Origin: a virus
Reading direction: 5' to 3' (one strand)
Virus record (IMG/VR): IMGVR_UViG_3300010413_000018
Span: 1-64,000 of that record
DNA length: 64,000 bases
The translations under genes and the position numbers were made by a program. The notes below the pieces were generated by a model. It was not told where the DNA came from and made no database searches. It saw only the letters and a list, made by a program, of their open reading frames with translations. Position 1 is the stretch's first letter. Each line of letters starts with the position of its first letter. This document shows, piece after piece, positions 3,991 through 27,757 of the stretch.

Positions 3991-4242
3991 TTACCCTTCG
4001 CCTTCTTCTTCGTACATGTCATTGGCGTCAGCTAAACGTTGTTCGTCTGTTTTTACGCTTAGACCGAATTGTTTTCTTAATTTAGTCGGTATTGTAACCA
4101 GTTTAGCCGGATTGTTTGTGTGCACCAACCTGTATGCAATTCCAAGTTCCTCCGGTATCGGTTCGCCGTAGCAAAGGCGGCAGAACTTTTCTCTGCGACC
4201 GCTACAGCGCGGGCAAACTACTTTTTCAGTATTACTGCTCAC
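3991..4242 (-). CDS. Small Zn-finger paralog family member
   Basis: CPRC..CRLCYGEPIPEELGIAYRL. Confidence 0.8.
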   Translation of the reverse strand: MSSNTEKVVCPRCSGRREKFCRLCYGEPIPEELGIAYRLVHTNNPAKLVTIPTKLRKQFGLSVKTDEQRLADANDMYEEEGEG

Positions 4243-4474
4243 GCTGTAAGATCTTTCTTAATTTCAATACGTGCTGAATACGCACGTACCCATCGGTCAT
4301 CATTAGTATGTAAGCCGCAGCGATCTCTTCAATGACTTGGCCGGTATTATCACACAACGCGCAAATGTCAGCGTTATAGGTCGTGTCAGCGCCAACACAA
4401 TGGAACCCTCTATTTTGCTCGCGCACCGGAGTGCAACGCGGGCAGGGAGTCAGTTTGGCGTCGTCTTGGCTCAT
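4232..4474 (-). CDS. Small Zn-finger paralog
   Basis: CPRC..CALC..EEIAAAYIL. Confidence 0.8.
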   Translation of the reverse strand: MSQDDAKLTPCPRCTPVREQNRGFHCVGADTTYNADICALCDNTGQVIEEIAAAYILMMTDGYVRIQHVLKLRKILQREQ

Positions 4475-4695
4475 TTCGCATGCCCCCAACGTTCCTCGTA
4501 AACATTTGGTAAGTCAAAAGCGCGCCGCAGCTCATCACACTGTTCTGAACTCGGCACTTTGCATTCTTCGAAGCCTTCACGCAACAATAAATAAGCAGTG
4601 CGCAGATCAGCAGGGATCTCGCGATCGTAGCACAAACGACACGCGTACATATATCCACCACAGCGCGGGCATTGTACTGCTTTCCTGGTCTTCAT
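4471..4695 (-). CDS. Small Zn-finger paralog
   Basis: CPRC..CRLC..IPADLRTAYLL. Confidence 0.8.
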   Translation of the reverse strand: MKTRKAVQCPRCGGYMYACRLCYDREIPADLRTAYLLLREGFEECKVPSSEQCDELRRAFDLPNVYEERWGHAK

Positions 4696-4904
4696 GGCGC
4701 TATCCCTGCTTTGTCTAGCTTTTCAATAATGCGATCGTACTCTGCCCACATAAAAGGCCCGTCATCGTCAGGTAGCAGAAGCTCGTACGCGGCCAAACGC
4801 TCTTTTGATACCCACCCTTTACCTTTACACATACCACAACCGCACCAACCGGCTCGCTCGCACTGAGGACAGCGCACTTTTCCTTTTCTTGGGTTACTGC
4901 TCAT
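4692..4904 (-). CDS. Small Zn-finger paralog
   Basis: CPQC..CGMC..VSKERLAAYEL. Confidence 0.8.
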   Translation of the reverse strand: MSSNPRKGKVRCPQCERAGWCGCGMCKGKGWVSKERLAAYELLLPDDDGPFMWAEYDRIIEKLDKAGIAP

Positions 4905-5187
4905 TTTGTAACTCCGCGAGTAACTGTAAAACCGTGCTCTCTAATGGACGCCAAACATACTTACCTAAATCAGGTATGATCAAACGGACCGCAACCGCAT
5001 AATGAGTCGGCACTACACCGCAGCCAGTGCAAAACACACATACAATATCGTGGTCATCATGAAGTATCTGTTTCTTTGTGTTCACCCAGAGACGAGGTTC
5101 CTTGCTTGACGGTAGGCTTTTACCGCGCGTTAGTTTTCCGTACCCGTAACAAATGGGGCACATTTCTCTTTTAGTGTTAATGCTCAT
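4894..5187 (-). CDS. Small Zn-finger paralog
   Basis: CPIC..CVFC..VPTHYAVAVRL. Confidence 0.8.
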   Translation of the reverse strand: MSINTKREMCPICYGYGKLTRGKSLPSSKEPRLWVNTKKQILHDDHDIVCVFCTGCGVVPTHYAVAVRLIIPDLGKYVWRPLESTVLQLLAELQNEQ

Positions 5188-5384
5188 TCTGTATCCATTT
5201 GTCGGGTTAGTTTAGCAATTTCATAAAACTGCAGAAATCCGTCTTCATCTGCCAGTAGCGCGTACGCGGTAGCCAACGATCTCGGCACGCGCCAATTAGC
5301 TAAACACAATGGGCATAACACGCTCCGGCCGGTATGCGCGCACCTAGGACAATCTACCAAATCATTGTTATCCTGACCGTTCAT
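5184..5384 (-). CDS. Small Zn-finger paralog
   Basis: CPRC..CPLC..VPRSLATAYAL. Confidence 0.8.
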   Translation of the reverse strand: MNGQDNNDLVDCPRCAHTGRSVLCPLCLANWRVPRSLATAYALLADEDGFLQFYEIAKLTRQMDTE

Positions 5385-5391
5385 AGCGCGT

Positions 5392-5619
5392 TCACTCGTT
5401 TTCCATTGCTATTAAATTCTCTCGCAACGCTTTGGCTTCCGAGGTAAGGCTCATCACTATTTCTTTTCCAGTGTCTGAGTCAATTGTTAACGGAAATCTC
5501 ATATAATATGCGGCAGTCCACGATTCAGGTACGCCGCGCTGACCTTGACAAAATGAGCAAAGCGCACGGCAGCCACAACGTGGGCATGCAACCCAACGTT
5601 CATACCTGCTCATTCCCAA
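5392..5619 (-). CDS. Small Zn-finger paralog
   Basis: CPRC..CSFC..VPESWTAAYYM. Confidence 0.8.
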   Translation of the reverse strand: MGMSRYERWVACPRCGCRALCSFCQGQRGVPESWTAAYYMRFPLTIDSDTGKEIVMSLTSEAKALRENLIAMENE

Positions 5620-5849
5620 TCCTTATTTACTGGTAAGTCAAAGTTCCGCCGTAACTGCTCACATTTTGCTTCTGAAAGCCCAAAATACTTATTACCACTA
5701 GACATCAATATGTACGCTACTCTCAGCTCAATTGGAATCCTTTTTCCGTAGCACAATGGACACTTCGATAAAACACCATCGCACCAAGGACACACTTCTT
5801 CCTGCGGTATCATTGGGCTAAATAATTCTTCGTTTACTTCGTCTGCCAT
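5610..5849 (-). CDS. Small Zn-finger paralog
   Basis: CPWC..CPLC..IPIELRVAYIL. Confidence 0.8.
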   Translation of the reverse strand: MADEVNEELFSPMIPQEEVCPWCDGVLSKCPLCYGKRIPIELRVAYILMSSGNKYFGLSEAKCEQLRRNFDLPVNKDWE

Positions 5850-6079
5850 CGTTCAATATCCATTAATAATGCTGCGGTTTCTGGTGGCGATGGGTGCACT
5901 GGGTAGCCGCGTTCAGTGCTTAGTAAAAAACTGTACGCGGTAGCTAAGTCTTCAGGCACTTTGTGCTTACCGCGACATAGCGTGCAACTCCCAGCGTAAA
6001 TACGATCTCCGTCGTACGGCCAATTCAACGCGCAACAACGCGGGCAGTTTACCATTGGTTGCGTCTTCCTTTTCTTCAT
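5834..6079 (-). CDS. Small Zn-finger paralog
   Basis: CPRC..CTLC..VPEDLATAYSF. Confidence 0.8.
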   Translation of the reverse strand: MKKRKTQPMVNCPRCCALNWPYDGDRIYAGSCTLCRGKHKVPEDLATAYSFLLSTERGYPVHPSPPETAALLMDIERWQTK

Positions 6080-6318
6080 GGTGCTATCCCGACGTTCTTG
6101 AGCTTGGTCAGTATTTCTATCCACTGGTCAACGCTTAAAATCGGTCCTCCTCCGGCCCAAAACTGTACGCCTTCCGGTAGTAGCATCGTAAATGCCACGT
6201 GCCGTTCAGGCGTCAAATAGCCTGTGCCACGACATAAACCGCAGTACTTGTACTTAAATGTCCCTCCTCTACCAGTAAGGCAGGCCGGACACTGTATTAA
6301 TTCTCCTTTAGATTTCAT
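6076..6318 (-). CDS. Small Zn-finger paralog
   Basis: CPAC..CGLC..LTPERHVAFTM. Confidence 0.8.
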   Translation of the reverse strand: MKSKGELIQCPACLTGRGGTFKYKYCGLCRGTGYLTPERHVAFTMLLPEGVQFWAGGGPILSVDQWIEILTKLKNVGIAP

Positions 6319-6530
6319 TCGCCGATCACTTCCTTACGTAGCTTCTCCAACCGTTCTGCCATCGCCCAAACGTCGTACTCCTGTAAAGCTCGTTCAACAT
6401 CATCCTTAACCAACCAAAAAGCCGCGTTTAATGCTGGAGATACGTAACCGCGCCCTAAACACAGTTGACACGTGCCGATTGAAACGTACTGACAAAACTG
6501 CGCTGGGCACACTATCCGGCTCTTCCTCAC
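6315..6530 (-). CDS. Small Zn-finger paralog
   Basis: CPAQFC..CQLC..VSPALNAAFWL. Confidence 0.8.
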   Translation of the reverse strand: MRKSRIVCPAQFCQYVSIGTCQLCLGRGYVSPALNAAFWLVKDDVERALQEYDVWAMAERLEKLRKEVIGE

Positions 6531-6808
6531 GTCTTCCTACCCTTCCTCAGTGCTACCAAGTCTTCATAATGCGCGAAGTAATCGTCGTCTTCTTCTTTTT
6601 GTGTTAACAGCACGTACGCGATTTTATCTTCTGGAGTCACCTTTTTAGTACCACAACAAAGTGGACAAGTAACGAATTTAAAATCCCAGCGTGGATTGGC
6701 TTTCCTAATTACTGTTTCTTCAGGAACGATTCCATAATATTCGTACGGTGCACAATATACCATGCCTTCATTAGAACAAAGCGGACATTTAACTTTTTTA
6801 GTACCCAT
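6527..6808 (-). CDS. Small Zn-finger paralog
   Basis: CPLC..CPLC..VTPEDKIAYVL. Confidence 0.8.
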   Translation of the reverse strand: MGTKKVKCPLCSNEGMVYCAPYEYYGIVPEETVIRKANPRWDFKFVTCPLCCGTKKVTPEDKIAYVLLTQKEEDDDYFAHYEDLVALRKGRKT

Positions 6809-7085
6809 ACTTATCCCATAAGTGATCAACTTCAACATTGAACTCAAGCGCTTGATAGGTATGCAGACAGTCTGTTTCCAAGTCAGGATGCTTTAGATAC
6901 AGAGCCGCGCTCACCGGTTCAGGCAGTTTGCCCGTACCTTTACAAATTGGGCAAGGCTTTTGATTATAATGAACGCCAGGAACATCAGGTGGCACTACAA
7001 AGCCTGACTGAATCCAACATAAGCGATCCACCCATTTTACTCCTTCACATACGGGGCAAAGAATCCGTTTTACGCGCTTACTCAA
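6798..7085 (-). CDS. Small Zn-finger paralog (start uncertain)
   Basis: CPVC..CPIC..LPEPVSAALYL. Confidence 0.75.
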   Translation of the reverse strand: MSKRVKRILCPVCEGVKWVDRLCWIQSGFVVPPDVPGVHYNQKPCPICKGTGKLPEPVSAALYLKHPDLETDCLHTYQALEFNVEVDHLWDKYGY

Positions 7086-7383
7086 AATACCTCTTTCTTT
7101 GTTTTTTAGACAAACTAATCCCGTCTGGACTTTGCATCTTAAAGTAGCACCCATGATCAAAAAACTGATGAAACGGCATCTTTAGCCCATCGACTTGCGT
7201 TCTTATAGTCCATATTTCAGATACACTAACGCGCTCTACACTCAAACTGTCGCTAACAAGTAATAAGTACGCGGAAGCTAGTGCAGCCGATACTTTACGC
7301 TGCTGGCTACAAAGGAAGCACGTTCCTTTATGCTGCACATCTTTACAGCGCGGGCACGGTACCTTTTCATGATTTTTTATCAT
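7078..7383 (-). CDS. Small Zn-finger paralog
   Basis: CPRC..CFLC..VSAALASAYLL. Confidence 0.8.
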   Translation of the reverse strand: MIKNHEKVPCPRCKDVQHKGTCFLCSQQRKVSAALASAYLLLVSDSLSVERVSVSEIWTIRTQVDGLKMPFHQFFDHGCYFKMQSPDGISLSKKQRKRYFE

Positions 7384-7585
7384 ATAATAAATCTATTTTC
7401 ATTTGGCTAACATCATCGATAGCCGGTGGAACGTCGGGCGTGTTCGCACACAATAGCGCGTAACCGATCATTATTATTTCCGGTATTGGCTTTCCGTGGC
7501 ACAGCCCACAGCCTTTCCACGCTGGAGTTTCTGGGCTTAAAATATGACACCCACAACGCGGGCATGTTAACGACGGATCGCTCAT
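7367..7585 (-). CDS. Small Zn-finger paralog
   Basis: CPRC..CGLC..IPEIIMIGYAL. Confidence 0.8.
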   Translation of the reverse strand: MSDPSLTCPRCGCHILSPETPAWKGCGLCHGKPIPEIIMIGYALLCANTPDVPPAIDDVSQMKIDLLYDKKS

Positions 7586-7770
7586 GAAGCCATCAGCTGA
7601 CGGTTAAACTCCACCGTTATTGGACCGCTGAACACTTCCCCACCGTCAGCATCGGTGCACACCATGTAGTCTTCCTCCGACACTGGGGCGATCTTCAGCT
7701 TTTCACCGTCAAACTCAATACGTACAAGGCGTCCGTCTTTTAGTTCGAGCGTTATTTTCGTCTCTTTCAT
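7582..7770 (-). CDS. Hypothetical protein
   Basis: ORF with AGGAG RBS, coupled to next gene. Confidence 0.65.
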   Translation of the reverse strand: MKETKITLELKDGRLVRIEFDGEKLKIAPVSEEDYMVCTDADGGEVFSGPITVEFNRQLMAS

Positions 7771-7829
7771 TTGGTACTCCTATGTAAAATTGCTACTATT
7801 TAGTTAATGCTCGGACGTTGGAGATTTGA

Positions 7830-8003
7830 ATGAAAAAAGTGATTTTCCTTTTGTTGGTCGCGGTTTCTTTACTAGGTAGCTGCTTGCTAATTGACTCAGA
7901 TATTGACGTCGACAGCGACATCACCATCAATAACGATCTTCCACCCAATAAACTAAATGTTGCTTTTGACGACGACGCTGGAGTAGATCCCGATCTGTTT
8001 TAG
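7830..8003 (+). CDS. Small acidic lipoprotein (57 aa)
   Basis: Hand translation MKKVIFLLLVAVSLLGSC-LLIDSDIDVDSD...; lipobox LGSC, GGAG RBS at 7820; below ORF-track cutoff. Confidence 0.65.
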   Translation: MKKVIFLLLVAVSLLGSCLLIDSDIDVDSDITINNDLPPNKLNVAFDDDAGVDPDLF

Positions 8004-8250
8004 TGTAACCAGGCAACGGAATTCCCATTTCTTCCATAAACGCTTGCAAGTCCGGGCCAGTAGGTGCGCTCGCCCCAAGCTTTAGTGCAAACGCGGTCAC
8101 TACTGTTTGATCCAACTTTTTAGATCCACGGCACAACGGACACATATCACCTTTAAAAATACTTTTAGGGAATATGCGATAGTGGCCATCCGCTGTTGCC
8201 ATCAGTACAACTTCCCCTTTCCCACCACATAATGGACATTTTTCCATCAT
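7927..8250 (-). CDS. Small Zn-finger paralog
   Basis: CPLC..CPLC..LDQTVVTAFAL. Confidence 0.8.
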   Translation of the reverse strand: MMEKCPLCGGKGEVVLMATADGHYRIFPKSIFKGDMCPLCRGSKKLDQTVVTAFALKLGASAPTGPDLQAFMEEMGIPLPGYTKTDRDLLQRRRQKQHLVYWVEDRY

Positions 8251-8400: not shown

Positions 8401-8586
8401 TTATTTAAACATACTGACAAGTTCTCTAACCTGAGTTCCCGGTATTAAAGTTTTACGCTCATCTTCTAATAAAATGTACGCTGTACGCAATTCTTCAGAA
8501 ATCGGCTTACCTTTACATAATGCACACAACGCGTCTCTTCTCGGTGCGTAGCAGCCACAGCGCGGGCACGGTTTTTCATTCGCCAT
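8401..8586 (-). CDS. Small Zn-finger paralog
   Basis: CPRC..CALC..ISEELRTAYIL. Confidence 0.8.
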   Translation of the reverse strand: MANEKPCPRCGCYAPRRDALCALCKGKPISEELRTAYILLEDERKTLIPGTQVRELVSMFK

Positions 8587-8890
8587 TATACTCGTCTTCT
8601 CCTACGTCAATGCGTAGTTGCTGTAAGTTAAAAAACAAGTCTGAGTACCTACGCCACCTTAGATCTCTATCAATCTGATCGACGACCAACAAATAAGCCG
8701 CGTTGAGTTCTTTGGATATCGCTTTGCCGTGGCATAACAAGCAACCCACCTCAATCTTACCGCATGTAGGGCACCCGCCGTACTTTAATAATTGCAGTTG
8801 CGGCTTAATAGGCAAACCGTGACAAAACGGGCACTCATTGATCAATACTTTATAAATAGTTTTACAATATGGACATCGAATAACGCGCAT
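8576..8890 (-). CDS. Double Zn-finger paralog
   Basis: CPYC..CPFC..CPTC..CLLC..ISKELNAAYLL. Confidence 0.8.
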   Translation of the reverse strand: MRVIRCPYCKTIYKVLINECPFCHGLPIKPQLQLLKYGGCPTCGKIEVGCLLCHGKAISKELNAAYLLVVDQIDRDLRWRRYSDLFFNLQQLRIDVGEDEYNGE

Positions 8891-9909: not shown

Positions 9910-9991
9910 ACAAGTATTGTGCCAGCTCGTATATTAATGATCAAGTTACTGGTTATTTTGATGTAAGTTACTGTAAGCATAATTATTTTAT

Positions 9992-10044
9992 TTGCAACGT
10001 TACTTTTTATTTGCAAACGTAACAAAATGAAGTATGCTTTAAAT
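9992..10044 (+). promoter_or_regulatory. Repeated early promoter module (TTGCAACGTTACTTTTTATTTGCA...TATGCT)
   Basis: Copy 1 of a 24-bp motif seen at least 9 times upstream of genes. Confidence 0.8.
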
Positions 10045-10381: not shown

Positions 10382-10750
10382 ATGGACGAAAACACCAGAA
10401 ACAAAGTCGCGAAACTGCCTGTGTGGGCGCGCAACCTAATAAACCAGCTTGAAGTGGAAGTCGCTTGCTACCAGCACGAGATCGAAACCTTGAAGCAAGT
10501 AAAAACGTCGCGGATCTACTACGGTTTTGAAGCATCACAGCGTGGCATGATGCCGATCCCCGACGACGGTCCAGTCACCTTCATGATGGGTCAGCTAAAG
10601 CCAGAAAACGAGTTTTCGCGAATACGTATCAGCTACGATCGCGACGCGCTTGAACCGGACAAATGGCTGACTGTAAGCAGTGACCTCGGCGCCCTTCTGG
10701 TAAAGCCGTGGGCCAGCAACATGATCAAGATCAAGATCGAAGATCGGTAA
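10382..10750 (+). CDS. Hypothetical phage protein
   Basis: ORF, KLPVWARNLINQLE N-terminus. Confidence 0.7.
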   Translation: MDENTRNKVAKLPVWARNLINQLEVEVACYQHEIETLKQVKTSRIYYGFEASQRGMMPIPDDGPVTFMMGQLKPENEFSRIRISYDRDALEPDKWLTVSSDLGALLVKPWASNMIKIKIEDR

Positions 10751-11014
10751 ATGCCAAAGCAAGAAATGGTGATGTGCCCGCGATGCTACTTTTTTTGCGT
10801 GGCACCACCACGCCAAGGGGAAGAGTGTCATACTCAATGCGCGCTATGCGGTAATAAAAAGCAAGTTCCAGAAGATCTTGCTACCGCATACGCGCTAGTT
10901 GAAGACCACCTTCACGGCCACCCTACCACCAACGAAACGATCCGGCTAAAAAACGATTACTGGGGATGTGAATGGCGCCTAGAAATTGAACAGTCTAAAA
11001 ATCATCCCAAATAG
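10751..11014 (+). CDS. Small Zn-finger paralog
   Basis: CPRC..CALC..VPEDLATAYAL. Confidence 0.8.
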   Translation: MPKQEMVMCPRCYFFCVAPPRQGEECHTQCALCGNKKQVPEDLATAYALVEDHLHGHPTTNETIRLKNDYWGCEWRLEIEQSKNHPK

Positions 11015-11514: not shown

Positions 11515-11716
11515 TAAAGTCCTTTTTCAACTGATAAATCTCGTTTGAAGATGGCGCCGTACCGTCTTCATGCTTCAAAAGTAAATACGCGGTTTCCAAG
11601 TTTTTTGAAACGTAGCCGCGCGTCCCACACAAAAAACACACGCACGTCTCGTTCCACGCGTTTTTCATACCGGCCGTACCGCCACAATGCGGGCAGTCTT
11701 TATGCTTCTTAGTCAT
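11477..11716 (-). CDS. Small Zn-finger paralog
   Basis: CPHC..CFLC..VSKNLETAYLL. Confidence 0.8.
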   Translation of the reverse strand: MTKKHKDCPHCGGTAGMKNAWNETCVCFLCGTRGYVSKNLETAYLLLKHEDGTAPSSNEIYQLKKDFSAQRQKNRRRSK

Positions 11717-11903
11717 AGCCTAAGTCTACCCTTACTTTTATTGTTTCTTCGATCGTTAACCAGCCACCGGTTGAAGCGTCAACTGTAAGCTTGTAAGCGG
11801 CAGCCAAATCTTCGGACACACGCCGCGTATTGGCGCACAACGAACACGGAACGCCGATCCCGTCGCAGCGCGGACACACTTCACTGTGGTCGTTGTTTAT
11901 CAT
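11709..11903 (-). CDS. Small Zn-finger paralog
   Basis: CPRC..CSLC..VSEDLAAAYKL. Confidence 0.8.
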   Translation of the reverse strand: MINNDHSEVCPRCDGIGVPCSLCANTRRVSEDLAAAYKLTVDASTGGWLTIEETIKVRVDLGYD

Positions 11904-12159
11904 ACCCAAACAACCTGCGTAGCTCGCGCACTTCCCGCGCTTCCGGATGGGCCTCATCCTCTCCGATCAATAAAATATACGCTGTCTTCAGCTTTTCAGA
12001 GATCGGCTTACCCTCACACAGTGAACATTTACGGTACTGCCAGCCTTTTGGCCGCCACCCTTTCTCCGGACAGCGCGGGCACCCGTTTCTAATCCTTCCT
12101 TTGTTAACGCGTGGGGGGCGCCGTACGCGCCCCAAACCCCAGCCTCTAAGTCTTCGCAT
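11881..12159 (-). CDS. Small Zn-finger paralog
   Basis: CPRC..CSLC..ISEKLKTAYIL. Confidence 0.8.
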   Translation of the reverse strand: MRRLRGWGLGRVRRPPRVNKGRIRNGCPRCPEKGWRPKGWQYRKCSLCEGKPISEKLKTAYILLIGEDEAHPEAREVRELRRLFGYDKQRPQ

Positions 12160-12557: not shown

Positions 12558-12604
12558 AGTATAACTCATTTTGTTATGGTTGCAAATAAAAAGTAACGTT
12601 GCAA
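12558..12604 (-). promoter_or_regulatory. Early promoter module copy
   Basis: TGCAAATAAAAAGTAACGTTGCAA at 12581-12604; TATACT -10 on minus strand. Confidence 0.8.
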
Positions 12605-12607
12605 ACT

Positions 12608-13132
12608 TTATTCTTCTGCGTACACCCTTTTCCAACTTTCAATAAACGCCACGATCGCCTTGGCGCCTTCCGGGTTCATTGATATTACAGTATACTCAAA
12701 CGTAGGTGTAAAGTTGGATAGGTGCAGCCACCGTAAAAACTCCATCACCGTGCTGTTCTCGCCTAAGTCGTGATCAAGGTACATATGATCCGGTAAGCCG
12801 TACCTCTGCACGTGAAACTTAGCTAATTCCACACAGTTAGCCCAAATCACTAGCGCGTCCCTCGGTATGTCATGGTCTCGATCCTTTCCGGGATTGCGCA
12901 CGTCATCCAACCACAAAATGTAGCGGATCGGTTGATCCAATAAAACACTTTTTAATTCACGTGCTGACTGCCCGTCTAACCCGTAACAATTATCTGCCTT
13001 CTCTAGAGCGTACGCTGCAGCTAAAAACTCCGGCACTTCACCGGTATCCTCGCAAAAAAAGCATCGCCGTTGACTAAAAAGTGCCTTCGCCATGTAACAG
13101 TGTGGACATTTAGCATACCCTGGTTTCATCAC
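12608..13132 (-). CDS. Zn-finger paralog fused to a cyclic-phosphate-processing receiver-like domain
   Basis: CPHC..CFFC..AAAYAL followed by ILWLDDVRNP...YLDHDLG...SMNPEGA. Confidence 0.7.
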   Translation of the reverse strand: MMKPGYAKCPHCYMAKALFSQRRCFFCEDTGEVPEFLAAAYALEKADNCYGLDGQSARELKSVLLDQPIRYILWLDDVRNPGKDRDHDIPRDALVIWANCVELAKFHVQRYGLPDHMYLDHDLGENSTVMEFLRWLHLSNFTPTFEYTVISMNPEGAKAIVAFIESWKRVYAEE

Positions 13133-13332: not shown

Positions 13333-13376
13333 TAATGGTTAATACCCGCGCCACAACTTTTTGTAAATATTTTTGT

Positions 13377-13429
13377 TTGCAACGTTACTTTTTATTTGCA
13401 CTAACCCTAAAATGAAGTATGCTTTAAGT
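13377..13429 (+). promoter_or_regulatory. Early promoter module copy
   Basis: Exact 24-bp motif + AAAATGAAGTATGCTTTAA. Confidence 0.8.
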
Positions 13430-13645
13430 ATGGACAAACGCTACAGAAAAATCAGTCAAAAAGAACGACAGGCAATGATTGACGACAGAAAAGTACAACT
13501 TCGCTCATTATGCAACGAAGTAGGATCTTGTGCTAACGAAGAACGCAGAATTTTACAAGCGGACATCAAGCGGTTAGAAAACCGCAGCCGTAAAGTTGTT
13601 TTTGACACATACGAAAGAACTGTCTGTTACGCCAGTTCAAAGTAA
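13430..13645 (+). CDS. Hypothetical early protein
   Basis: ATG directly after promoter. Confidence 0.65.
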   Translation: MDKRYRKISQKERQAMIDDRKVQLRSLCNEVGSCANEERRILQADIKRLENRSRKVVFDTYERTVCYASSK

Positions 13646-13993: not shown

Positions 13994-14008
13994 AATAAAA
14001 AAAGTTGT

Positions 14009-14061
14009 TTGCAACGTTACTTTTTATTTGCATATCCCACAAAATGAAGTATGCTTTAAAT
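14009..14061 (+). promoter_or_regulatory. Early promoter module copy
   Basis: Exact 24-bp motif + AAAATGAAGTATGCTTTAAAT. Confidence 0.8.
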
Positions 14062-14343
14062 ATGGACAAAAACACAAATAAAACCTACACCGTAGAAGTT
14101 TTTCGAAGCACTAACCGCATCAGCATCGTAACCGGTACGGTAGCGGAGCTGACCCGTCATTTTATGTACACGCTGCAAGCTGGAGCTTCCTACCAGCACG
14201 AGCGCGGCAACAAAAAGATCAACCTAGCGCCGAAGAACATAACCGCGCTTTTGGCAAACCTGAATAAAGCCAGCGCTAACGTTTCTTGCAACGGTAGCCG
14301 AAACAAAACCTACGCACTTTCCCAGTTTGACGAGCAAAATTAG
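14062..14343 (+). CDS. Hypothetical early protein
   Basis: ORF after promoter. Confidence 0.7.
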   Translation: MDKNTNKTYTVEVFRSTNRISIVTGTVAELTRHFMYTLQAGASYQHERGNKKINLAPKNITALLANLNKASANVSCNGSRNKTYALSQFDEQN

Positions 14344-14628: not shown

Positions 14629-14637
14629 ATATTTTAT

Positions 14638-14691
14638 TTGCAACGTTACTTTTTATTTGCACGTACCACAAAAGCGTGGTATACTTAAAGC
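14638..14691 (+). promoter_or_regulatory. Early promoter module copy
   Basis: Exact 24-bp motif, extended -10 TGGTATACT. Confidence 0.8.
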
Positions 14692-15237: not shown

Positions 15238-15603
15238 ATGAACTCAGCTAAGAAACGCCTTGTAGAATATTTAATCCAGGCCGGATCCGTTTACGTCCAT
15301 CTGCTCACCCGAGCGGATGGCGTTTACGTTCCAGAGCACCTTAAAGCGACTCCCACTACCGCGTTACAGATCGGCTACAACTTTCCCGTGCCGATCCCGG
15401 ATCTAAAAATCGACGATACCGGTATAACCGCCACATTGTCGTTCAGTCGTACGCCGTACCTGTGCTTTGTACCGTGGGACGCAGTCTTCGCGATCACTAA
15501 CGAGGCCGGCCAAGGCGCACAATGGCCTATCGACGGCGAGCTGCTGCTTGAGCCGGAAGATAAACCCGAGGAACGGCGCCCCAAGCTTAGGTTGGTAAAA
15601 TGA
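15238..15603 (+). CDS. sspB: SspB-like ClpXP adaptor
   Basis: GVYVPEHL, IPDLKIDDTGITATLSFS, FVPWDAVFAI, C-terminal RPKLRLVK ClpX-binding-type tail. Confidence 0.85.
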   Translation: MNSAKKRLVEYLIQAGSVYVHLLTRADGVYVPEHLKATPTTALQIGYNFPVPIPDLKIDDTGITATLSFSRTPYLCFVPWDAVFAITNEAGQGAQWPIDGELLLEPEDKPEERRPKLRLVK

Positions 15604-20300: not shown

Positions 20301-20353
20301 ATTTAAAGCATACTTCATTTTGTTACGTTTGCAAATAAAAAGTAACGTTGCAA
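20301..20353 (-). promoter_or_regulatory. Early promoter module copy (53 bp identical to 9992-10044)
   Basis: Reverse complement of the 9992 copy. Confidence 0.8.
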
Positions 20354-20375
20354 ATTATTTATTTTTGGCTACCCC

Positions 20376-21446: not shown

Positions 21447-22292
21447 GTGACAATGTCTGAATACATTTTTAATCCAAAAACAAATGGTTCGCAAGTTCTC
21501 GGTTGCGTACCGCTGCACGGTCCTTGTCCGTTCGCGTGCGCGGACTGCTTTGCCCAATACAAGGACAAACGAGGGCGCTCTTACCTCGGGGAAAACTGGG
21601 AGCACACACCTAACATGCCTAGCTTGGAACAGGCTGAGAAGAAGATTATACGCGTTAACGACATTGGTGACTCGTCGGATCGTGTCAACCAAGTAGTCGC
21701 CGCCGTCCAATGCTACAAGCACCGCTTTTATAACACCTCGTTCACCGGCCGACTACAGCACTTCGACGCGCCGTTTATGCTGTCGGTAAATCCCGGTGAC
21801 CTTACCGACCAATCGTATCAGCAGATTCTTAGCCGGTTTCACAGCAATGCACTCGCGGTACGCGTTCGCGTCAATATGTGGAACGTCCACGTCGTGCAAG
21901 AAGTGATCAATCACTACACTGCGGTAGGAATACCGGTCATCATGACGTTCATGGCCTATCATGAAACGCCGATCCCACGCGAATACGAGCAATACTACAA
22001 AGATCGCCAACGGACCATCAATAACTACTACTGCATCACGCAAGAAGGTTGGGACAAGGTACTGGCTCAACTGCAGTTAAATGAACTCACTTTGACGTGC
22101 GGACGCGACGCTACCACCCACGCCTGCACCGCGTGCCGTAACTGCGAAAAGCTTTACGTCCTACACATGCTTCGACGTGACCATAATATTAAACCGGACG
22201 ACGCCGCTGAACTCTTCGACCTACTGAAGTCCGAACAGCAAGACGAGGTTTACGCCAAATGGTTAAATCCATCGAAGAACCTGTATACATAA
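21447..22292 (+). CDS. Radical SAM-like Fe-S protein
   Basis: N-terminal CxxxCxxCF (CPFACADCF), IRVNDIGD, C-terminal Cys cluster C..CTACRNC. Confidence 0.6.
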   Translation: MTMSEYIFNPKTNGSQVLGCVPLHGPCPFACADCFAQYKDKRGRSYLGENWEHTPNMPSLEQAEKKIIRVNDIGDSSDRVNQVVAAVQCYKHRFYNTSFTGRLQHFDAPFMLSVNPGDLTDQSYQQILSRFHSNALAVRVRVNMWNVHVVQEVINHYTAVGIPVIMTFMAYHETPIPREYEQYYKDRQRTINNYYCITQEGWDKVLAQLQLNELTLTCGRDATTHACTACRNCEKLYVLHMLRRDHNIKPDDAAELFDLLKSEQQDEVYAKWLNPSKNLYT

Positions 22293-23172: not shown

Positions 23173-23534
23173 CAGGTAACATGAAGTTCACCATCGACAC
23201 CACCAAACTAGCCAACCAAGTGAAGCTATGCCGGCGAAACTTACGCTCTGATCGCGTCAAGGTTTGCGCCCAATGCCCATTTGAAGACATCATTGTTCAC
23301 CGGTATCCTGAGCTTCAAAAACTGTTCGTAGCAAAACGGCGTAGTGTTGCCAGAAAAACGCATGTGTCTGCTGCAGGCACTTTAGTTGTGGAGACAACAC
23401 AAGTGCATAATTGCTGGAACTGCGGGCACACTAAAAACGCTTGCTTTAACAAGCAGTTTCCTCCAAAAAAAAGCTCAGAAGGGCGCGACTGTCACCTTTG
23501 GATACCAGTAGGCGCGGATGACGGCCAGCTTTAA
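23169..23534 (+). CDS. Cys-rich hypothetical protein
   Basis: CAQC, CWNC. Confidence 0.6.
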   Translation: MTGNMKFTIDTTKLANQVKLCRRNLRSDRVKVCAQCPFEDIIVHRYPELQKLFVAKRRSVARKTHVSAAGTLVVETTQVHNCWNCGHTKNACFNKQFPPKKSSEGRDCHLWIPVGADDGQL

Positions 23535-23772
23535 TCAGCGATCGCAGTGCGAGCAGTGCTTCAACGAAAACTGTGGCGATCGCGGTAAGCGCAACATTCA
23601 CTGGGACGGTAAGCGCAACTACTGCAGTCGGTTCAAGACGGACCCTAATAAGGCCGACACGCTGCCTCCGCCACCTCAAGGTAAAAGCTTAGAGGAGTGG
23701 CAGCGCGACCTTGCGAAGGCTATGAAGGGCATGCGTGTCTTTTTAAAACAAAACGCGCGCTCGACAGACTAA
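23518..23772 (+). CDS. Cys-rich hypothetical protein
   Basis: CEQC..C..C. Confidence 0.6.
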   Translation: MTASFNQRSQCEQCFNENCGDRGKRNIHWDGKRNYCSRFKTDPNKADTLPPPPQGKSLEEWQRDLAKAMKGMRVFLKQNARSTD

Positions 23773-23980
23773 GCGGTATTGGGCTATCAATAAAAGCGTG
23801 TGGGGGCAACTGCCACTCTTATTGACTACCGCGCCGTATCAGAGCGCGCTGGCCACCGTTCCACTGTAAGTGCGCCTGCTACACCGGAAACCAGCAACCG
23901 GTATCGTAACAGGGGAAGGACGCGCACGAACAGCTGGCTTGTGGTTATGTTAAGCGTAGCCGAGAAGCGCGCTCGCGGTC
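23773..23980. ncRNA. Candidate structured RNA/DNA (two long nested stem-loops) between convergent genes
   Basis: Pairings GCGGTA/TACCGC, TCAATAA/TTATTGA; GAGCGCGCT/AGCGCGCTC, GTGCG/CGCAC, CCTG/CAGG, ACCGG/CCGGT. Confidence 0.4.
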
Positions 23981-23994
23981 AACTGATTTCCATT

Positions 23995-24021
23995 AAAGAA
24001 AAAAGCCGGCCGTAGCCGGCT
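23995..24021 (-). terminator. Rho-independent terminator
   Basis: AGCCGGC-CGTA-GCCGGCT stem with A-tract on + side. Confidence 0.7.
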
Positions 24022-24040
24022 CTATTCTCTGAAGTTTATT

Positions 24041-24319
24041 TTAAAGTTCGGTTGCGCACCCCATCGGAATTCCATGAACAAGCGGATTGTACCGCCTATC
24101 TATTTTACCTTCAGCTTCAAGGTAACGGTATTCAGTTGCCGCGTCTTCAACCGACAGCGCGTGCGTCGCGTAATGCCATACTGCGGCGCCAGTCGGTATA
24201 CGGCCGGCCGGCAGTACGCATACAAGCGGATCTTTCCAACCACAACGTTCCAGGTCAAATACCAACCAAACTGAAAAGCGCTTCATTCCGGACCAAGTTC
24301 TTCGCTTTCTGATCTTCAT
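24041..24319 (-). CDS. Hypothetical protein
   Basis: GGAG RBS. Confidence 0.6.
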   Translation of the reverse strand: MKIRKRRTWSGMKRFSVWLVFDLERCGWKDPLVCVLPAGRIPTGAAVWHYATHALSVEDAATEYRYLEAEGKIDRRYNPLVHGIPMGCATEL

Positions 24320-24322
24320 AGC

Positions 24323-24532
24323 TTACTCCCAGCCTTTAATGTTCGCGTTGTAATGTAAACCGGATCTTATAGCCGCGCGGAACGCTTCAGCCGGATTCGT
24401 AAACGTAGTTGCGCCGTTTACAGTTTCGCGGTTACTGCTACCTGGCTTTACAAAGATCCAGTTAGCCGTGCCAAAACAATCGGCTGTTTCTCGTACCAGT
24501 GTGATCATTGAATTCTCCTTGTTGTTGTCCAT
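24323..24532 (-). CDS. Hypothetical early protein
   Basis: After promoter module. Confidence 0.65.
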   Translation of the reverse strand: MDNNKENSMITLVRETADCFGTANWIFVKPGSSNRETVNGATTFTNPAEAFRAAIRSGLHYNANIKGWE

Positions 24533-24585
24533 ACTTAAAGGATAACAAAAAATTGAATGAATGCAAATAAAAAGTAACGTTGCAA
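24533..24585 (-). promoter_or_regulatory. Early promoter module copy
   Basis: Motif at 24562-24585. Confidence 0.8.
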
Positions 24586-24622
24586 ATAAAAATGTAAGTT
24601 TTTACCTACAAACTAGGTATTC

Positions 24623-24994
24623 TTACCCGTCTATCATCGTCTCAGCTATTGCGTGTTCTTTAATCCACGCAACCACCGCATCATGCGTTTCGTCGCCGGC
24701 ACCGCGCTCTCGCTCAACCCATTTTAAGGTCTGTACCTCTTTCACAATACTTTGATCCTCGGCTTTCACCAAGCACCCGCGCACCGTAATAAGACACGCG
24801 TCGTACGCGAACAGCCACTCCATCCCGTATTCTCGATGCTGTTGTGGATCGTAACCTAACCGGCTACCCATTTCTTCGACAATGTCGGCCTTTACACGTG
24901 TGACCCACACTGGCTCGCGGCGACTCTGGCTGTAACTCTGGCTCTGACTCTTGCTGCTGTTCCCACTCATTGTAAACCCGCATTCCGTTTTCAT
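24623..24994 (-). CDS. Hypothetical protein
   Basis: ORF track. Confidence 0.55.
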   Translation of the reverse strand: MKTECGFTMSGNSSKSQSQSYSQSRREPVWVTRVKADIVEEMGSRLGYDPQQHREYGMEWLFAYDACLITVRGCLVKAEDQSIVKEVQTLKWVERERGAGDETHDAVVAWIKEHAIAETMIDG

Positions 24995-25181
24995 CGTGGC
25001 TGACCATGAATTTAATTAGTTTTTTGATTACATTTTCATATCGCGCTAACCGACGCTGCTGGCGCGCTACTTTGGATCGCAACTCAACCAGCTCAATGGC
25101 GTCAGCATTACGAGTCCTGATACCGGCCTGGTCTAAATCAAACCGTAGTGCTTTTTCTTCCAATGACAGCTCGTTAGCCAT
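24864..25181 (-). CDS. Hypothetical protein
   Basis: AAGGA RBS; overlaps next ORF. Confidence 0.55.
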   Translation of the reverse strand: MANELSLEEKALRFDLDQAGIRTRNADAIELVELRSKVARQQRRLARYENVIKKLIKFMVSHDENGMRVYNEWEQQQESEPELQPESPRASVGHTCKGRHCRRNG

Positions 25182-25578
25182 TAATCCTTCTCACTTCCTG
25201 TTTGATACCGGTTTCAACCTCATCAGCGATCTTGTCGCATTTCTCTCCACCTTCTTCACGAAGTAGCTTTACGGCGTGCGCTAACACTGAAAGTAGTCGA
25301 TCTTTGGATAAACCGGTAAGGTCAAGACGCTTAGCAGACGCCACTAAACGTGCCTTCCACCATTGATCGACAAGCTCTGGAGTTTCTTCATGGATCCGTT
25401 GTTGCGCCCAGCGCTCACGCGGATATTTCCAACCGTCCAGAGTCCACTTCGAACCATCGTCCAGCTCTATGAACCGTTTTAAAACGCGCTTAACGATACG
25501 GCGCCGTAAAATCGGCGAACTGAAATGCCCAACAATAGTCATGACCCGTTGCCCTTCATACCAAACTTGATCGCTCAT
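25174..25578 (-). CDS. Hypothetical phage protein
   Basis: AAGGAG RBS, after promoter. Confidence 0.7.
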   Translation of the reverse strand: MSDQVWYEGQRVMTIVGHFSSPILRRRIVKRVLKRFIELDDGSKWTLDGWKYPRERWAQQRIHEETPELVDQWWKARLVASAKRLDLTGLSKDRLLSVLAHAVKLLREEGGEKCDKIADEVETGIKQEVRRING

Positions 25579-25604
25579 TTATTGCTCCTTAGGTAGTTGT
25601 CCTT

Positions 25605-25657
25605 ACCCTAAGGATACAATAAAAAAGTATGAATGCAAATAAAAAGTACAGTTGCAA
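25605..25657 (-). promoter_or_regulatory. Early promoter module variant
   Basis: TGCAAATAAAAAGTACAGTTGCAA at 25634-25657. Confidence 0.75.
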
Positions 25658-25658
25658 A

Positions 25659-26087
25659 CTAATATTTCCACCTGTACAGCGATACCGCTGTACGAAAAGC
25701 ATCCGTAGCGGCTTTTAAATCAATGGCCTGCCCGAGTAAATCGTGCGTGAACCGCATCCTGTATGCAATATCTCCCATGAGTACAGTATCTAGGTTAGCG
25801 CGCTGCTCCATCAGTTGTGCGTCTTCATACCCGATTACGGCTAACTGCTGAAATTTGCTTGCTACATAGATAAATAGCCCATGGTCAAAACCGCTAATCG
25901 CCGCTTTGTAAAGCGCGACTGTCGCATCCGCTGTATCAAAAAACAAAGTTGTGCAATAGCTTTGCTCGATCGCTGACCAATCTACGTTTTTATACGCTAA
26001 GCAAATACCCCAAGCGCGCTCTCTTGCCAGGTCATACGGCCCAACAAGAGCACTCTTCGCAGCTCCAAGTTCTTCAAACTTCATCAT
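25659..26087 (-). CDS. Hypothetical protein
   Basis: ORF track. Confidence 0.65.
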   Translation of the reverse strand: MMKFEELGAAKSALVGPYDLARERAWGICLAYKNVDWSAIEQSYCTTLFFDTADATVALYKAAISGFDHGLFIYVASKFQQLAVIGYEDAQLMEQRANLDTVLMGDIAYRMRFTHDLLGQAIDLKAATDAFRTAVSLYRWKY

Positions 26088-26947
26088 TAATTTGCGTTGC
26101 GCCCCTTTATTTCACTGTGGGTCATAACGCGTGCATTCGGCAAATTCTTCATCAAGTCTTCAGTGACACCGAACTGTGCGATCGGCCGGCTTAGATCCGC
26201 TCGCTTTACGTACGAACCTGCTAACCGGCTTACATACTTGTGCTCGTCTGTTTCTAAGATCCCAGACATCGAACTTAAAAAACAAAACAAGTTCATTTTC
26301 TGTTTGTCGCCTACTGTTTCATGATAAACAAATCCCTTCGGACTATCGTAAAGCTTAAAAAGCTTACTGTGAAACAAAATATGGCTTAATTGCACTGACG
26401 AAACTGTCCCAAAAGCGTTAAGCGCCGTCGCCATTATGCGAGCGATCGCGTTTACATCTTTCGGCGGAAAGCTTTTTTTAGCCGGATCCCATCCAGGGTA
26501 AAAACGACTTTTAGTTATGTCGGTAGTTCCGAATCCCAAGCACTGCCCGGTATTGGCCAACTTTTCGTCTCCATACACCATATCCTTCCAGGTTAGGTCG
26601 GCCGTCGCCATAAAACCAGTTGCTTTTTGTTTTCCATCTGGCAACTGCTCGGTTCCAACGGTAATAGGCACCCCACTAGTTAAGTACTTATCGTAAGGCT
26701 CACACAGCATGTTAAGCATGTTGAACGGCGAACACATGCGAACCCCATTCGCGTAAATCCCGTAGTTACCCACCAACTCCCCAAAATCCCCGTCTACTTT
26801 AAACGGTTTAAAAGCCCAGTCAGTAAGATTTACCGGATCTAACTGAATTAATTCGTTCATCAGCGATGACGCTAATCGAGCGACGTACACTGGATCCACG
26901 TCTTGCCACAGCTTACGTATGAATTCTTCTAAGTTATTAATCTGCAT
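26087..26947 (-). CDS. Hypothetical protein
   Basis: 286-aa ORF with RBS. Confidence 0.75.
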   Translation of the reverse strand: MQINNLEEFIRKLWQDVDPVYVARLASSLMNELIQLDPVNLTDWAFKPFKVDGDFGELVGNYGIYANGVRMCSPFNMLNMLCEPYDKYLTSGVPITVGTEQLPDGKQKATGFMATADLTWKDMVYGDEKLANTGQCLGFGTTDITKSRFYPGWDPAKKSFPPKDVNAIARIMATALNAFGTVSSVQLSHILFHSKLFKLYDSPKGFVYHETVGDKQKMNLFCFLSSMSGILETDEHKYVSRLAGSYVKRADLSRPIAQFGVTEDLMKNLPNARVMTHSEIKGRNAN

Positions 26948-26958
26948 GGTTTTCCTTT

Positions 26959-27372
26959 CTAATTTGGTAAAGCTTCCTTCAAATATACCGTTAACGCTAT
27001 TAAGTCAGCTTCTTTTTTAATTTTTTGTGCGCACTGTGCCAATTCATCAAGAATAGTGAAACCTTTTTCCTTCAGCATTTTAAAACTTATTTCTGCCATA
27101 ATTGCCAGCATTAAGCTGTGCCCAGCAACGTCTTGGCACACCGTTACAACTTCTTCTGGCGAACCAACTCCTTGGTGAATTCCTGTTATTGTCACTGACT
27201 GCAAGCTAGCGTATACGCTTTCAACACGCCAAAACGCCACTAACGGATCTTTACTACCGCGCGCCGCTTCCGCTACTTTCGATAGCTTCTGATAAAATAC
27301 TGACAGCTCTTGAGTTAATGGTGCTATGCGCTCTAGCGCACCTTGAATAGCTTCATTCGATGGATTTGTCAT
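26959..27372 (-). CDS. Hypothetical helical protein
   Basis: ORF track. Confidence 0.65.
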   Translation of the reverse strand: MTNPSNEAIQGALERIAPLTQELSVFYQKLSKVAEAARGSKDPLVAFWRVESVYASLQSVTITGIHQGVGSPEEVVTVCQDVAGHSLMLAIMAEISFKMLKEKGFTILDELAQCAQKIKKEADLIALTVYLKEALPN

Positions 27373-27457
27373 TACTTATTTAATACCCACCTTCAAAAAA
27401 TTTGTAATATTTTTACGCAATTATGTTAAAATTTTCCTAATCGCCCAATTACTCAAT

Positions 27458-27757
27458 ATGCCTACTTCTCATCCACAAGTACCTTGCCCGGCCTGCGATG
27501 GCACAGGAACAGTCCTTACAGACCAGAAAAACCCACTACGGCCATACGATCGCCCACGCGTCGCCTGTAAACTTTGTGGTGGTTGCAAAGTAGTGCTCGT
27601 CGAAGTAGACAGCGCTTGGAAACTCTTACACGAATCACTCGACTACAGTGCTTGCCTATGGCGTATTTGGCAAACAATGCCATTATACCTACATCCTAAA
27701 GCACGCCTCCTAATAGAAGCCGACCAGTTTTGTGCTTGGGGATCCAAAAACCACTAA
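27458..27757 (+). CDS. Small Zn-finger paralog
   Basis: CPAC..CKLC..VLVEVDSAWKL. Confidence 0.75.
   Translation: MPTSHPQVPCPACDGTGTVLTDQKNPLRPYDRPRVACKLCGGCKVVLVEVDSAWKLLHESLDYSACLWRIWQTMPLYLHPKARLLIEADQFCAWGSKNH

Follow-up and report, generated by a model that had tools for sequence, protein, structure and literature searches.

The window analyzed here is the first 64,000 nucleotides of the viral record IMGVR_UViG_3300010413_000018 of IMG/VR (140,728 bp, classed as linear and rated 100% complete by CheckV), and it carries a large family of small genes encoding putative zinc-finger proteins. A first-pass annotation had noted the shared motif, and 32 open reading frames (ORFs) picked by a regular expression for it were the seed of a hidden Markov model (HMM), which was rebuilt once and run over the 1,354 ORFs of 30 aa or longer in the six frames of the whole genome. 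This count of copies by HMM, which the same annotation had proposed, gave 58 ORFs with 59 domains at E values of 2e-27 to 1e-11. The best-scoring nonmember ORF reached only an E value of 0.026, which sets the family apart from chance matches. A separate six-frame search with the family alignment gave 59 matches in the genome, and all-against-all BLAST of the genome joined 55 of the 58 members into one cluster, with other paralogue clusters having three members at most. Judged from their sequences, these ORFs are genuine genes and belong to a single protein family that is confined to viruses and has not been described before. The member proteins are 57 to 194 aa long, and their genes occupy 11.5% of the genome (16.2 kb) and account for about 23% of its ORFs (58 of some 240 to 250).

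Arrangement of the gene family and its conserved motif

The window contains 39 members between positions 3991 and 27757 (38 whole genes and one half copy; E values of 1e-11 to 2e-20), 35 on the minus strand and 4 on the plus strand (starting at 10751, 15600, 15802, and 27458). Fifteen of them stand in an unbroken row from 7585 down to 3991, and in this and the other packed runs, the stop and start codons of neighboring genes mostly overlap by 4 to 29 nt (spacings of −4 to −29 nt). The first-pass annotation had described about 39 copies in packed runs on both strands, 15 of them in a row, and these figures for the window stand. It undercounted the family in the genome, where 19 further genes lie at the other end (122.4 to 140.6 kb), together with a remnant left by a deletion and, at the contig end, a C-terminal fragment. 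One member, at 133777-134361 of the genome, has two family domains. The family occupies two arms of mostly small, unannotated genes (1 to 28 kb and 122 to 141 kb), which flank replication genes encoding PolA, a primase-helicase, a helicase, and SbcCD. The fragment at genome positions 140591-140722 on the minus strand (L001:19591-19722) is the C-terminal half of a family gene that runs off the contig end. Joining the contig end to its start does not complete this copy, and the two ends have no repeat in common, so that a simple circular contig was rejected. The record may therefore be short of sequence at its 140.6-kb end, despite the completeness of 100% given by CheckV.

The column statistics of the profile alignment agree with the proposed pattern CPxC...CxLCxG...AYxL. 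The four cysteines are invariant, and conservation extends well beyond them, to V9 (31 of 56), P12 (56 of 57), G16 (33 of 57), G18 (25 of 57), L33 (50 of 58), G36 (42 of 58), V/I40 (54 of 58), L44 (30 of 58), A47 (55 of 58), Y/F48 (53 of 58), L50 (52 of 58), L68 (39 of 50), and R69 (25 of 50). The loop between the knuckles varies from about 5 to more than 40 residues, and the C-terminal part is variable in both length and sequence. Paralogues are about 20 to 35% identical to a reference member, and the DNA repeats among copies are confined to short patches. The helix motif [ED]xx[TASG][AS][YFLM]xL[hydrophobic] was also sought in nonfamily ORFs, where it occurs 3 times versus 0.8 ± 0.9 times in shuffled sequences, an excess too weak for use.

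Predicted fold and nearest known proteins

AlphaFold2 (AF2) predicted the 79-aa member with a mean local confidence (pLDDT) of 90.5 and a global confidence (pTM) of 0.69, with strands at residues 5 to 7 and 35 to 37 and helices at residues 38 to 47 and 57 to 77; the 100-aa member has the same layout at a pLDDT of 78.9. Apart from cysteine, glycine, and proline, every conserved position is hydrophobic and falls within the predicted strand or one of the two helices, where the pLDDT is above 90, and these positions therefore look like the core of the fold rather than a free docking surface. These residues probably form the core of a mini-domain, a conclusion drawn from residue positions and confidence values without viewing the model coordinates. 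The suggestion of the first-pass annotation that the AYxL helix serves as a docking site is weakened accordingly, its conserved residues being hydrophobic and placed within the predicted folded core. The module reads as a single diverged DnaJ-type zinc center, with zinc binding predicted from the cysteine pattern, followed by a family-specific pair of helices, and it has no solved relative over the whole domain.

No model of Pfam, PHROG, or NCBIfam reaches its cutoff for the zinc-finger module. When the family profile was compared with PDB sequences, the best matches were the UvrA zinc module (E = 6e-6), the DnaJ cysteine-rich domain 1exk (E = 2.8e-5), and Anti-TRAP (E = 2e-3), with alignments covering the knuckles only. 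PF00684 (DnaJ_CXXCXGXG) matches 14 of the 58 members at E values of ≤0.01 (best, 1.4e-4), and its gathering cutoff of 32.7 bits is not reached by any of the 58, the best scoring 20.5 bits. PF15777 (Anti-TRAP) matches 8 of the 58 at E values of ≤0.01, and the Anti-TRAP cutoffs are not reached either (best, 17.2 bits versus 32 for PF15777 and 14.6 versus 65 for RtpA NF058604). Lar (PF14354) matches 6 of the 58 at this level through the CxxC knuckles only (best, 17 bits versus a cutoff of 28.6), and TIGR02642/PF27659 (CHP02642, a phage-related hypothetical protein) gives 13.8 bits versus 101.4 for the best window member (E = 0.033; model positions 180 to 241 of 267). None of the 58 members matches the ClpX zinc-finger family at an E value of ≤0.01, and none matches a J domain or DnaJ_C. 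When 10 members were scanned with PHROG, phrog_1479 alone matched below an E value of 1e-3, and it did so in the cRec portion of a fusion protein that is discussed below. The first-pass annotation had named two outcomes that would count against a new family, a signal of generic CxxC pairs only and a match to a known family; the signal goes beyond CxxC and no curated threshold is reached, but the knuckles themselves are of the DnaJ CXXCXGXG type. A search of 1.84 billion representative sequences with the profile gave 1,201 matches at E values of ≤1e-3 and 62 at ≤1e-10, which fall into two classes. One consists of long proteins with 5 to 10 repeats that match profile positions 5 to 48 only; these belong to PF00684 proper and carry HNH or kinase domains. 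The other consists of small proteins of 60 to 110 aa that match over the full length, including both helices.

Structure comparisons point in the same direction. With both models, Foldseek places Anti-TRAP first and BSD2 next, at E values of 0.2 to 1.8; the Anti-TRAP matches are weak (E = 0.23 and 0.62; TM scores of 0.3 to 0.5). No Foldseek match against the PDB and BFVD has an E value of ≤0.001, and none in BFVD is below 0.26. The best Z scores of VIA-align over 48,161 chains were 4.5 and 3.8, inside the noise range, with none of ≥5, and the ESM Atlas returned only unnamed clusters with scores of ≤0.90.

The family resembles the central cysteine-rich domain of DnaJ (PF00684; 1exk) in its CxxCxGxG knuckles and hairpin zinc center, and the member at 8576-8890 even has four CxxC motifs. 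It differs in that nearly all other members have two motifs and one zinc center instead of four repeats and two centers, and in that the DnaJ J and C-terminal domains are missing, whereas DnaJ lacks the two helices of the family. The knuckle glycines (G16, G18, and G36) are also retained in only some of the members. BSD2 and the plant DnaJ-like zinc-finger proteins (6ekb, 6ekc, and 8ilm) are likewise stand-alone mini-proteins that bind a client, the Rubisco large subunit, but the match is weak (E = 1.6 to 3.5), and BSD2 has two zinc centers, lacks the helices of the family, and is a eukaryotic, single-copy protein. In HMO-2011-type marine phages, part of a DnaJ central domain is inserted in the DNA polymerase (PMC9038755); this insert is also one unit of two CXXCXGXG motifs in a phage and outside DnaJ, although it is part of one enzyme, while the family consists of free-standing multicopy genes.

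Anti-TRAP (RtpA; 2bx9, 3ld0, and 2zp9) is very small and has one DnaJ-like four-cysteine zinc center followed by a helix, a layout similar to the one predicted for the family, and it acts by binding and blocking another protein, as the title of entry 2zp9 states. However, the matches are nonsignificant (E = 0.2 to 0.7), Anti-TRAP is a single-copy regulator of Bacillus tryptophan genes, and the phage proteins are longer, with a second helix, family-specific residues, and dozens of copies. Like Anti-TRAP, which forms trimers and dodecamers, the products might assemble into homo- or hetero-oligomeric particles with a structural or sequestering role. The architecture of a zinc knuckle followed by a helix would suit such assembly, as would overlapping, presumably cotranscribed genes, which would yield roughly equal amounts of product. 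The extreme divergence in surface and length of the 58 copies suits a shared packing interface poorly, however, and strains that are nearly identical differ by the loss of whole genes for which no compensation is seen, and we therefore consider oligomeric particles very unlikely.

Age, strain turnover, and distribution of the family

The copies are old, with identities of about 30 to 45%. The best paralogue pairs in the genome are only about 35 to 56% identical over partial lengths, and 25 of the 58 members have their best match in a fragmentary external set instead of among their 57 paralogues, including a few clear orthologue pairs at 55 to 64 bits, such as 6076-6318 and L010_5665-6015. A FastTree phylogeny of 146 domains is weak, with 78 columns, and was therefore used solely for the coarse interleaving of sequences. 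Labels of own and external origin change 29 times on this tree, compared with 45.6 ± 2.9 changes in shuffles and 1 change for a single lineage-specific burst. Labels of array segments change 38 times (39.0 ± 1.7 in shuffles), which means that neighbors in an array are not closest kin. On this sequence evidence, the family diversified long ago, and its copies lack close paralogues. A diversity-generating retroelement was considered and dropped, since the variation is among old paralogues and not in one hypervariable target, and no reverse transcriptase is present among the large ORFs of the window.

Whole genes differ between close strains. Sister-strain contigs (L004 to L006) share 97.7 to 98.5% DNA identity with this genome and yet hold four extra family genes. 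One is a 218-nt cassette (L004:1280-1497) located exactly at the ATGA stop/start junction at 6314/6319, with AATGAA flanks. A 325-nt gene (L005:295-619) is left in this genome only as the remnant ATGAATAAAATAA at 133459, and through a 439-nt deletion (L005:2337-2775 versus 131742/3), two family genes have been merged, leaving a 36-aa remnant at 131728-131838. The 325- and 439-nt differences are, from the remnants they left, deletions in this genome. This gain and loss of single genes resembles the turnover of accessory genes, and whole-gene differences between strains that are about 98% identical provide a tractable case of the reshuffling of a phage accessory arsenal.

Selection was estimated from 11 sister-strain orthologues with 71 substitutions. 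The ratio of nonsynonymous to synonymous rates (dN/dS) is 0.44 (27.5 synonymous and 43.5 nonsynonymous differences) and is heterogeneous among genes. Amino acid changes affect 7 of 406 scaffold residues and 33 of 670 nonscaffold residues (Fisher P = 0.007), a threefold-lower rate in the scaffold, where dN/dS is about 0.2. Both parts are under purifying selection, which is stronger on the scaffold. The comparison of loop and scaffold proposed in the first-pass annotation, together with the column statistics and the two AF2 models, supports its description of a constant scaffold with a variable loop and tail.

The same data bear on the idea that the phage derives no function from the genes and could dispense with them, as filler cassettes that propagate themselves by recombining at the junctions between genes. 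The whole-gene indels between strains, one of them exactly at an ATGA junction with AATGAA flanks, and the incomplete copies (one half copy, one truncated copy, and one remnant) are what such cassettes would leave behind. Filler is nevertheless extremely unlikely given the 58 intact frames, the purifying selection on them, and the retention of arrays in phages whose polymerases are only 56 to 65% identical. There are also no recent duplicates, which indicates that nothing is actively spreading.

Searches of 50,697 GenBank phage records by megablast (8 kb of the array) and tblastn (one member) gave no match, and a word-based homologue search found the own or sister copies, one unrelated DnaJ-like protein, and nothing else. 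The DNA polymerase of the phage is at most 25 to 29% identical to those of known phages, and a polymerase-based locus search found only two 7-kb viral fragments, with polymerases 56 to 65% identical. The polymerase match on a related viral fragment (L009:501-3998) covers 3,498 nt for an 852-aa query, which implies that the gene of this relative has an insert of about 300 aa, possibly an intein. The external full-length members that were looked up are all metagenomic. Six array fragments with about 9 to 26 members each are listed in Table 1, and most array fragments have a few nonfamily genes in common with this genome, at 44 to 63% identity. As the related fragments carry both arrays and shared genes, the arrays are a trait of an uncultured phage lineage and not of one genome. 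One of these fragments (L010) also holds a Radical_SAM gene.

The family is new, and it is an extreme case of something already known, a small zinc protein of a phage multiplied into many paralogues. It is absent from Pfam, PHROGs, NCBIfam, and the GenBank phage records searched, and it makes up more than a tenth of a complete-looking 141-kb phage. The largest comparable expansion singled out in the literature is a zinc ribbon of about 35 copies in Bacillus phage G (498 kb), which was called "unprecedented" by Iyer et al. (2021; PMC7824862). Both are big expansions of a small zinc-binding protein in a single phage genome, but they involve different families, as the six frames of the phage G record (JN638751; 497,513 bp) contain no match to the profile at E values of ≤0.01. 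The present genome, 3.5 times smaller, has 58 copies, and arrays occur throughout the metagenomic lineage rather than in one phage. The statement of the first-pass annotation that it knew of no described phage family of this size is thus fair when set against the literature.

Candidate promoters, neighboring genes, and proposed roles

A 25-nt element, TTTGCAACGTTACTTTTTATTTGCA, occurs in 14 copies with up to 4 mismatches, mostly in the two arms (Table 1). It is followed by 17 nt and a TATxxT hexamer and, in most copies, by an ATG 6 to 7 nt further on (often ATGGACAAC, encoding MDN). The N-terminal MKYALNMD of some ORFs is promoter DNA translated as protein. The element looks like a sigma-70-type promoter class whose first genes would be leaderless, while generic scans for sigma-70 promoters and terminators showed no enrichment over shuffles. 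Several family runs lie downstream of copies of the element in the same orientation. This promoter resemblance, together with the genome position, suggests that the family genes are expressed early. Each gene of a second small paralogue trio, at 13373-13645 (+), 14005-14343 (+), and genome 137206-137598 (−), also lies directly behind a copy; besides this trio and the family itself, no BLAST cluster exceeds two members. Arrays of a 20-nt periodic repeat are located at 809-1360 and 3400-3930, directly beside the 15-gene run. The 8-mer AACGTTAC occurs 16 times in the window versus 3.6 expected, 9 times in the 20-nt arrays and 7 times in the promoter elements, and this shared 8-mer suggests that one DNA-binding factor acts on both.

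Repeated DNA elements of this kind need a factor, and the members could be regulators that bind specific DNA or RNA sequences, or nucleoid-binding proteins, with a different site for each. Iyer et al. (2021; PMC7824862) suggested "specific TFs or structural DNA-binding proteins" (TFs, transcription factors) for the zinc ribbon of phage G. In the members, the leader at the N terminus and the zinc half are basic on average (+3.4), and 33 of the 58 members have an isoelectric point (pI) above 8 (range, 4.3 to 10.7; median, 8.3). However, 15 members are acidic (pI below 6.5, the lowest at 4.3), and the column statistics show no conserved basic surface position except R69, which is present in half of the members. 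In addition, the nearest relatives in fold (the DnaJ cysteine-rich domain, Anti-TRAP, and BSD2) bind proteins rather than nucleic acids, and the genome of phage G, from which the suggestion comes, has no match to the family profile. A role in nucleic acid binding is therefore possible but unlikely.

A gene of the SspB family, whose members are ClpXP adaptors, lies at 15238-15603 (+) and encodes 121 aa (PF04386, 34.5 bits versus a cutoff of 27). The best PDB match of its product is the Agrobacterium SspB-like protein 2nys (E = 1e-4), and the presence of such a gene hints at a proteobacterial host; tRNA genes, sought as a further clue to the host, were not found. The C terminus of the protein is basic (...KLRLVK), which we take to resemble the ClpX-binding tail of Escherichia coli SspB. 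DnaJ-type zinc domains help chaperones to handle substrates. The stop codon of the SspB-like gene overlaps the start of a run of two family genes (15600 and 15802), and this overlap raises the question of whether the members are adaptors whose constant helices dock on a common machine, a protease or chaperone such as ClpXP with the SspB-like adaptor, while the variable loop recruits substrates. Such docking would also suit the helix motif, which is the most conserved feature besides the cysteines and is found in distant relatives too. Only 2 of the 58 genes adjoin the SspB-like gene, however, and the hydrophobic helix residues in the confidently predicted core leave little conserved exposed surface for a common partner; the lack of ClpX zinc-finger and J-domain matches reported above also speaks against adaptors, which we regard as decidedly unlikely. 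It is still more improbable, and in our view highly so, that the constant scaffold couples dozens of target loops to one effector route, for example, by delivering host proteins of defense or housekeeping to ClpXP through the SspB-like adaptor. If it did, the arrays would be a modular system for targeting proteins to proteolysis or sequestration, with specificities swapped between strains.

The reading that we favour, and hold tentatively, is that the family is a putative repertoire of zinc-stabilized specific binders for host takeover or counterdefense, probably made early in infection. It fits best the combination of a scaffold with variable parts, old and selected copies, presence or absence between strains, a cRec fusion, and relatives that bind proteins. 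Each product would be a mini-domain of about 60 residues with one zinc center built from two DnaJ-type knuckles (V-x-CPxCxGxG ... CxLCxG-x3-V), a zinc hairpin tipped by a loop of varying length, and two helices after the zinc center (ELAxAYxLL and then ...L-R-x-x-F/L). The hydrophobic core would stay fixed, while the loop, the turn between the helices, the tail, and most surface positions would be free to vary. Arrays of overlapping genes in the small-gene arms would be transcribed as operons starting at the repeated sigma-70-like promoter, and single genes are gained and lost between near-identical strains. The members would be made together early, and each would recognize a different macromolecule, probably of the host, in a mode of action like that of the 53-residue Anti-TRAP, which blocks TRAP. 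The fusion of one member to a cRec domain counts for this reading, as this domain is predicted to be a counterdefense cyclic-phosphate-processing enzyme (Iyer et al., 2021; PMC7824862, section 3.4.8), and the heterogeneous charge of the members also favors a repertoire of binders.

Several points weigh against a binder repertoire. The likeness to Anti-TRAP and BSD2 is weak, with the Foldseek E values of 0.2 to 1.8, VIA-align Z scores below 5, and unreached curated thresholds given above, and the on average basic N-terminal halves would fit nucleic acid binding too. The probable early timing is read from the likeness of the element to a promoter and from the place of the genes in the genome. 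In the small sample of 71 substitutions, neither the scaffold nor the variable parts reach a dN/dS of 1, and there is thus no sign of positive selection or of an ongoing arms race at the level of residues. Finally, the variable parts are 30% identical between putative orthologues and 26% identical between random paralogue pairs, a modest difference, and as these values are barely apart, a paralogue-specific constraint in general is not claimed.

The family is smaller than most designed binders, is confidently predicted, and offers many natural variants. If the members are specific binders, bacterial proteins could be probed or inhibited with a ready panel of them, and binder engineering would gain a compact scaffold of natural origin.

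Table 1. Family members and copies of the candidate promoter element by position in the window (unless marked as genome positions), and array fragments of related phages by length. Members are assigned by the E value of the family HMM; aa is the length of the longest ORF where so marked.
Feature	Position or length	Strand	E value and remarks
Member, 83 aa	3991..4242	−	1.3e-14; last gene of 15-gene run
Member, 85 aa	4232..4489	−	1.8e-16
Member, 74 aa	4471..4695	−	2e-14
Member, 70 aa	4692..4904	−	4.3e-15
Member, 97 aa	4894..5187	−	7.8e-14; long loop; protein P0004 from another sample 93% identical
Member, 66 aa	5184..5384	−	2.6e-15
Member, 75 aa	5392..5619	−	3.5e-12
Member, 79 aa	5610..5849	−	1e-14
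Member, 96 aa (longest ORF)	5834..6124	−	2.9e-18
Member, 80 aa	6076..6318	−	2e-12; clear orthologue L010_5665-6015, 47% identity over 72 aa including tail
Member, 71 aa	6315..6530	−	1.1e-11; first knuckle is a CPxxxC variant; extra sister-strain gene at 3' ATGA junction
Member, 106 aa	6527..6847	−	8.1e-19; long loop
Member, 120 aa (longest ORF)	6798..7160	−	1e-14; 95 aa in sister strain
Member, 101 aa	7078..7383	−	2.2e-15; long C-terminal tail; best match L012_3245-3553, 62 bits
Member, 72 aa	7367..7585	−	8.5e-14; first gene of 15-gene run
Member, 107 aa	7927..8250	−	3e-12
Half copy, 57 aa	8247..8420	−	8.6e-12; profile positions 25-76; without first CxxC, second knuckle and helices only
Member, 61 aa	8401..8586	−	6.9e-14
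Member, 104 aa	8576..8890	−	3.1e-13; four CxxC motifs (two nested putative zinc centers, like the DnaJ central domain)
Member, 74 aa	9245..9469	−	7.7e-14
Member, 71 aa	9441..9656	−	7.3e-15
Member, 87 aa	10751..11014	+	1.1e-17; gene 3 of plus-strand operon behind element at 9991
Member, 100 aa	10995..11297	−	2e-20; AF2 model 1 (pLDDT 78.9)
Member, 77 aa	11281..11514	−	6.9e-17
Member, 79 aa	11477..11716	−	5e-20; AF2 model 2 (pLDDT 90.5)
Member, 82 aa (longest ORF)	11709..11957	−	4.5e-15; orthologue-like match L010_5260-5502, 55 bits
Member, 92 aa	11881..12159	−	4.6e-18; very basic N terminus, pI 10.7
Fusion of family domain (residues 2-64) and cRec receiver-like domain (residues 72-165)	12608..13132	−	1.6e-13; PF20274 E 3.1e-12, 47.4 bits versus cutoff of 27
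Member, 67 aa	13129..13332	−	2.2e-16
Member, 69 aa	15600..15809	+	1.1e-17; start overlaps stop of SspB-like gene
Member, 78 aa	15802..16038	+	2.2e-15
Member, 93 aa	16370..16651	−	1.2e-16; long loop; orthologue-like P0138, 63 bits
Member, 70 aa	16626..16838	−	5e-16
Member, 88 aa	16831..17097	−	2.5e-16; long loop
Member, 92 aa	17094..17372	−	3.5e-18; long loop
Member, 80 aa	17359..17601	−	9e-17
Member, 79 aa	17588..17827	−	1.4e-17
Member, 138 aa	18209..18625	−	2e-18; domain at residues 52-137; N-terminal extension of about 50 aa
Outlying member, 99 aa	27458..27757	+	6e-15; profile positions 1-60; AWKL replaces AYxL
TTTGCAACGTTACTTTTTATTTGCA copy	9991-10015	+	
TTTGCAACGTTACTTTTTATTTGCA copy	13376-13400	+	
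TTTGCAACGTTACTTTTTATTTGCA copy	14008-14032	+	
TTTGCAACGTTACTTTTTATTTGCA copy	14637-14661	+	
TTTGCAACGTTACTTTTTATTTGCA copy	61012-61036	+	
TTTGCAACGTTACTTTTTATTTGCA copy	12581-12605	−	
TTTGCAACGTTACTTTTTATTTGCA copy	20330-20354	−	
TTTGCAACGTTACTTTTTATTTGCA copy	24562-24586	−	
TTTGCAACGTTACTTTTTATTTGCA copy	25634-25658	−	
TTTGCAACGTTACTTTTTATTTGCA copy	30619-30643	−	
TTTGCAACGTTACTTTTTATTTGCA copy	57624-57648	−	
TTTGCAACGTTACTTTTTATTTGCA copy	genome 122378		outside window
TTTGCAACGTTACTTTTTATTTGCA copy	genome 131637		outside window
TTTGCAACGTTACTTTTTATTTGCA copy	genome 137547		outside window
Array fragment L002	10.3 kb		about 11 members
Array fragment L010	9.7 kb		about 20 members
Array fragment L012	11.9 kb		about 26 members
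Array fragment L013	20.3 kb		14 members
Array fragment L015	12.3 kb		9 members
Array fragment L016	10.8 kb		14 members

Three other ORFs of the window gave matches to known families. The ORF at 10382-10750 (+) matches DUF7239 (E = 2e-17), and a 281-aa cysteine-rich protein encoded at 21447-22292 (+) has a faint radical-SAM-like match (E = 0.009). The ORF at 28890-29495 (−) encodes a dUTPase (E = 5e-19).

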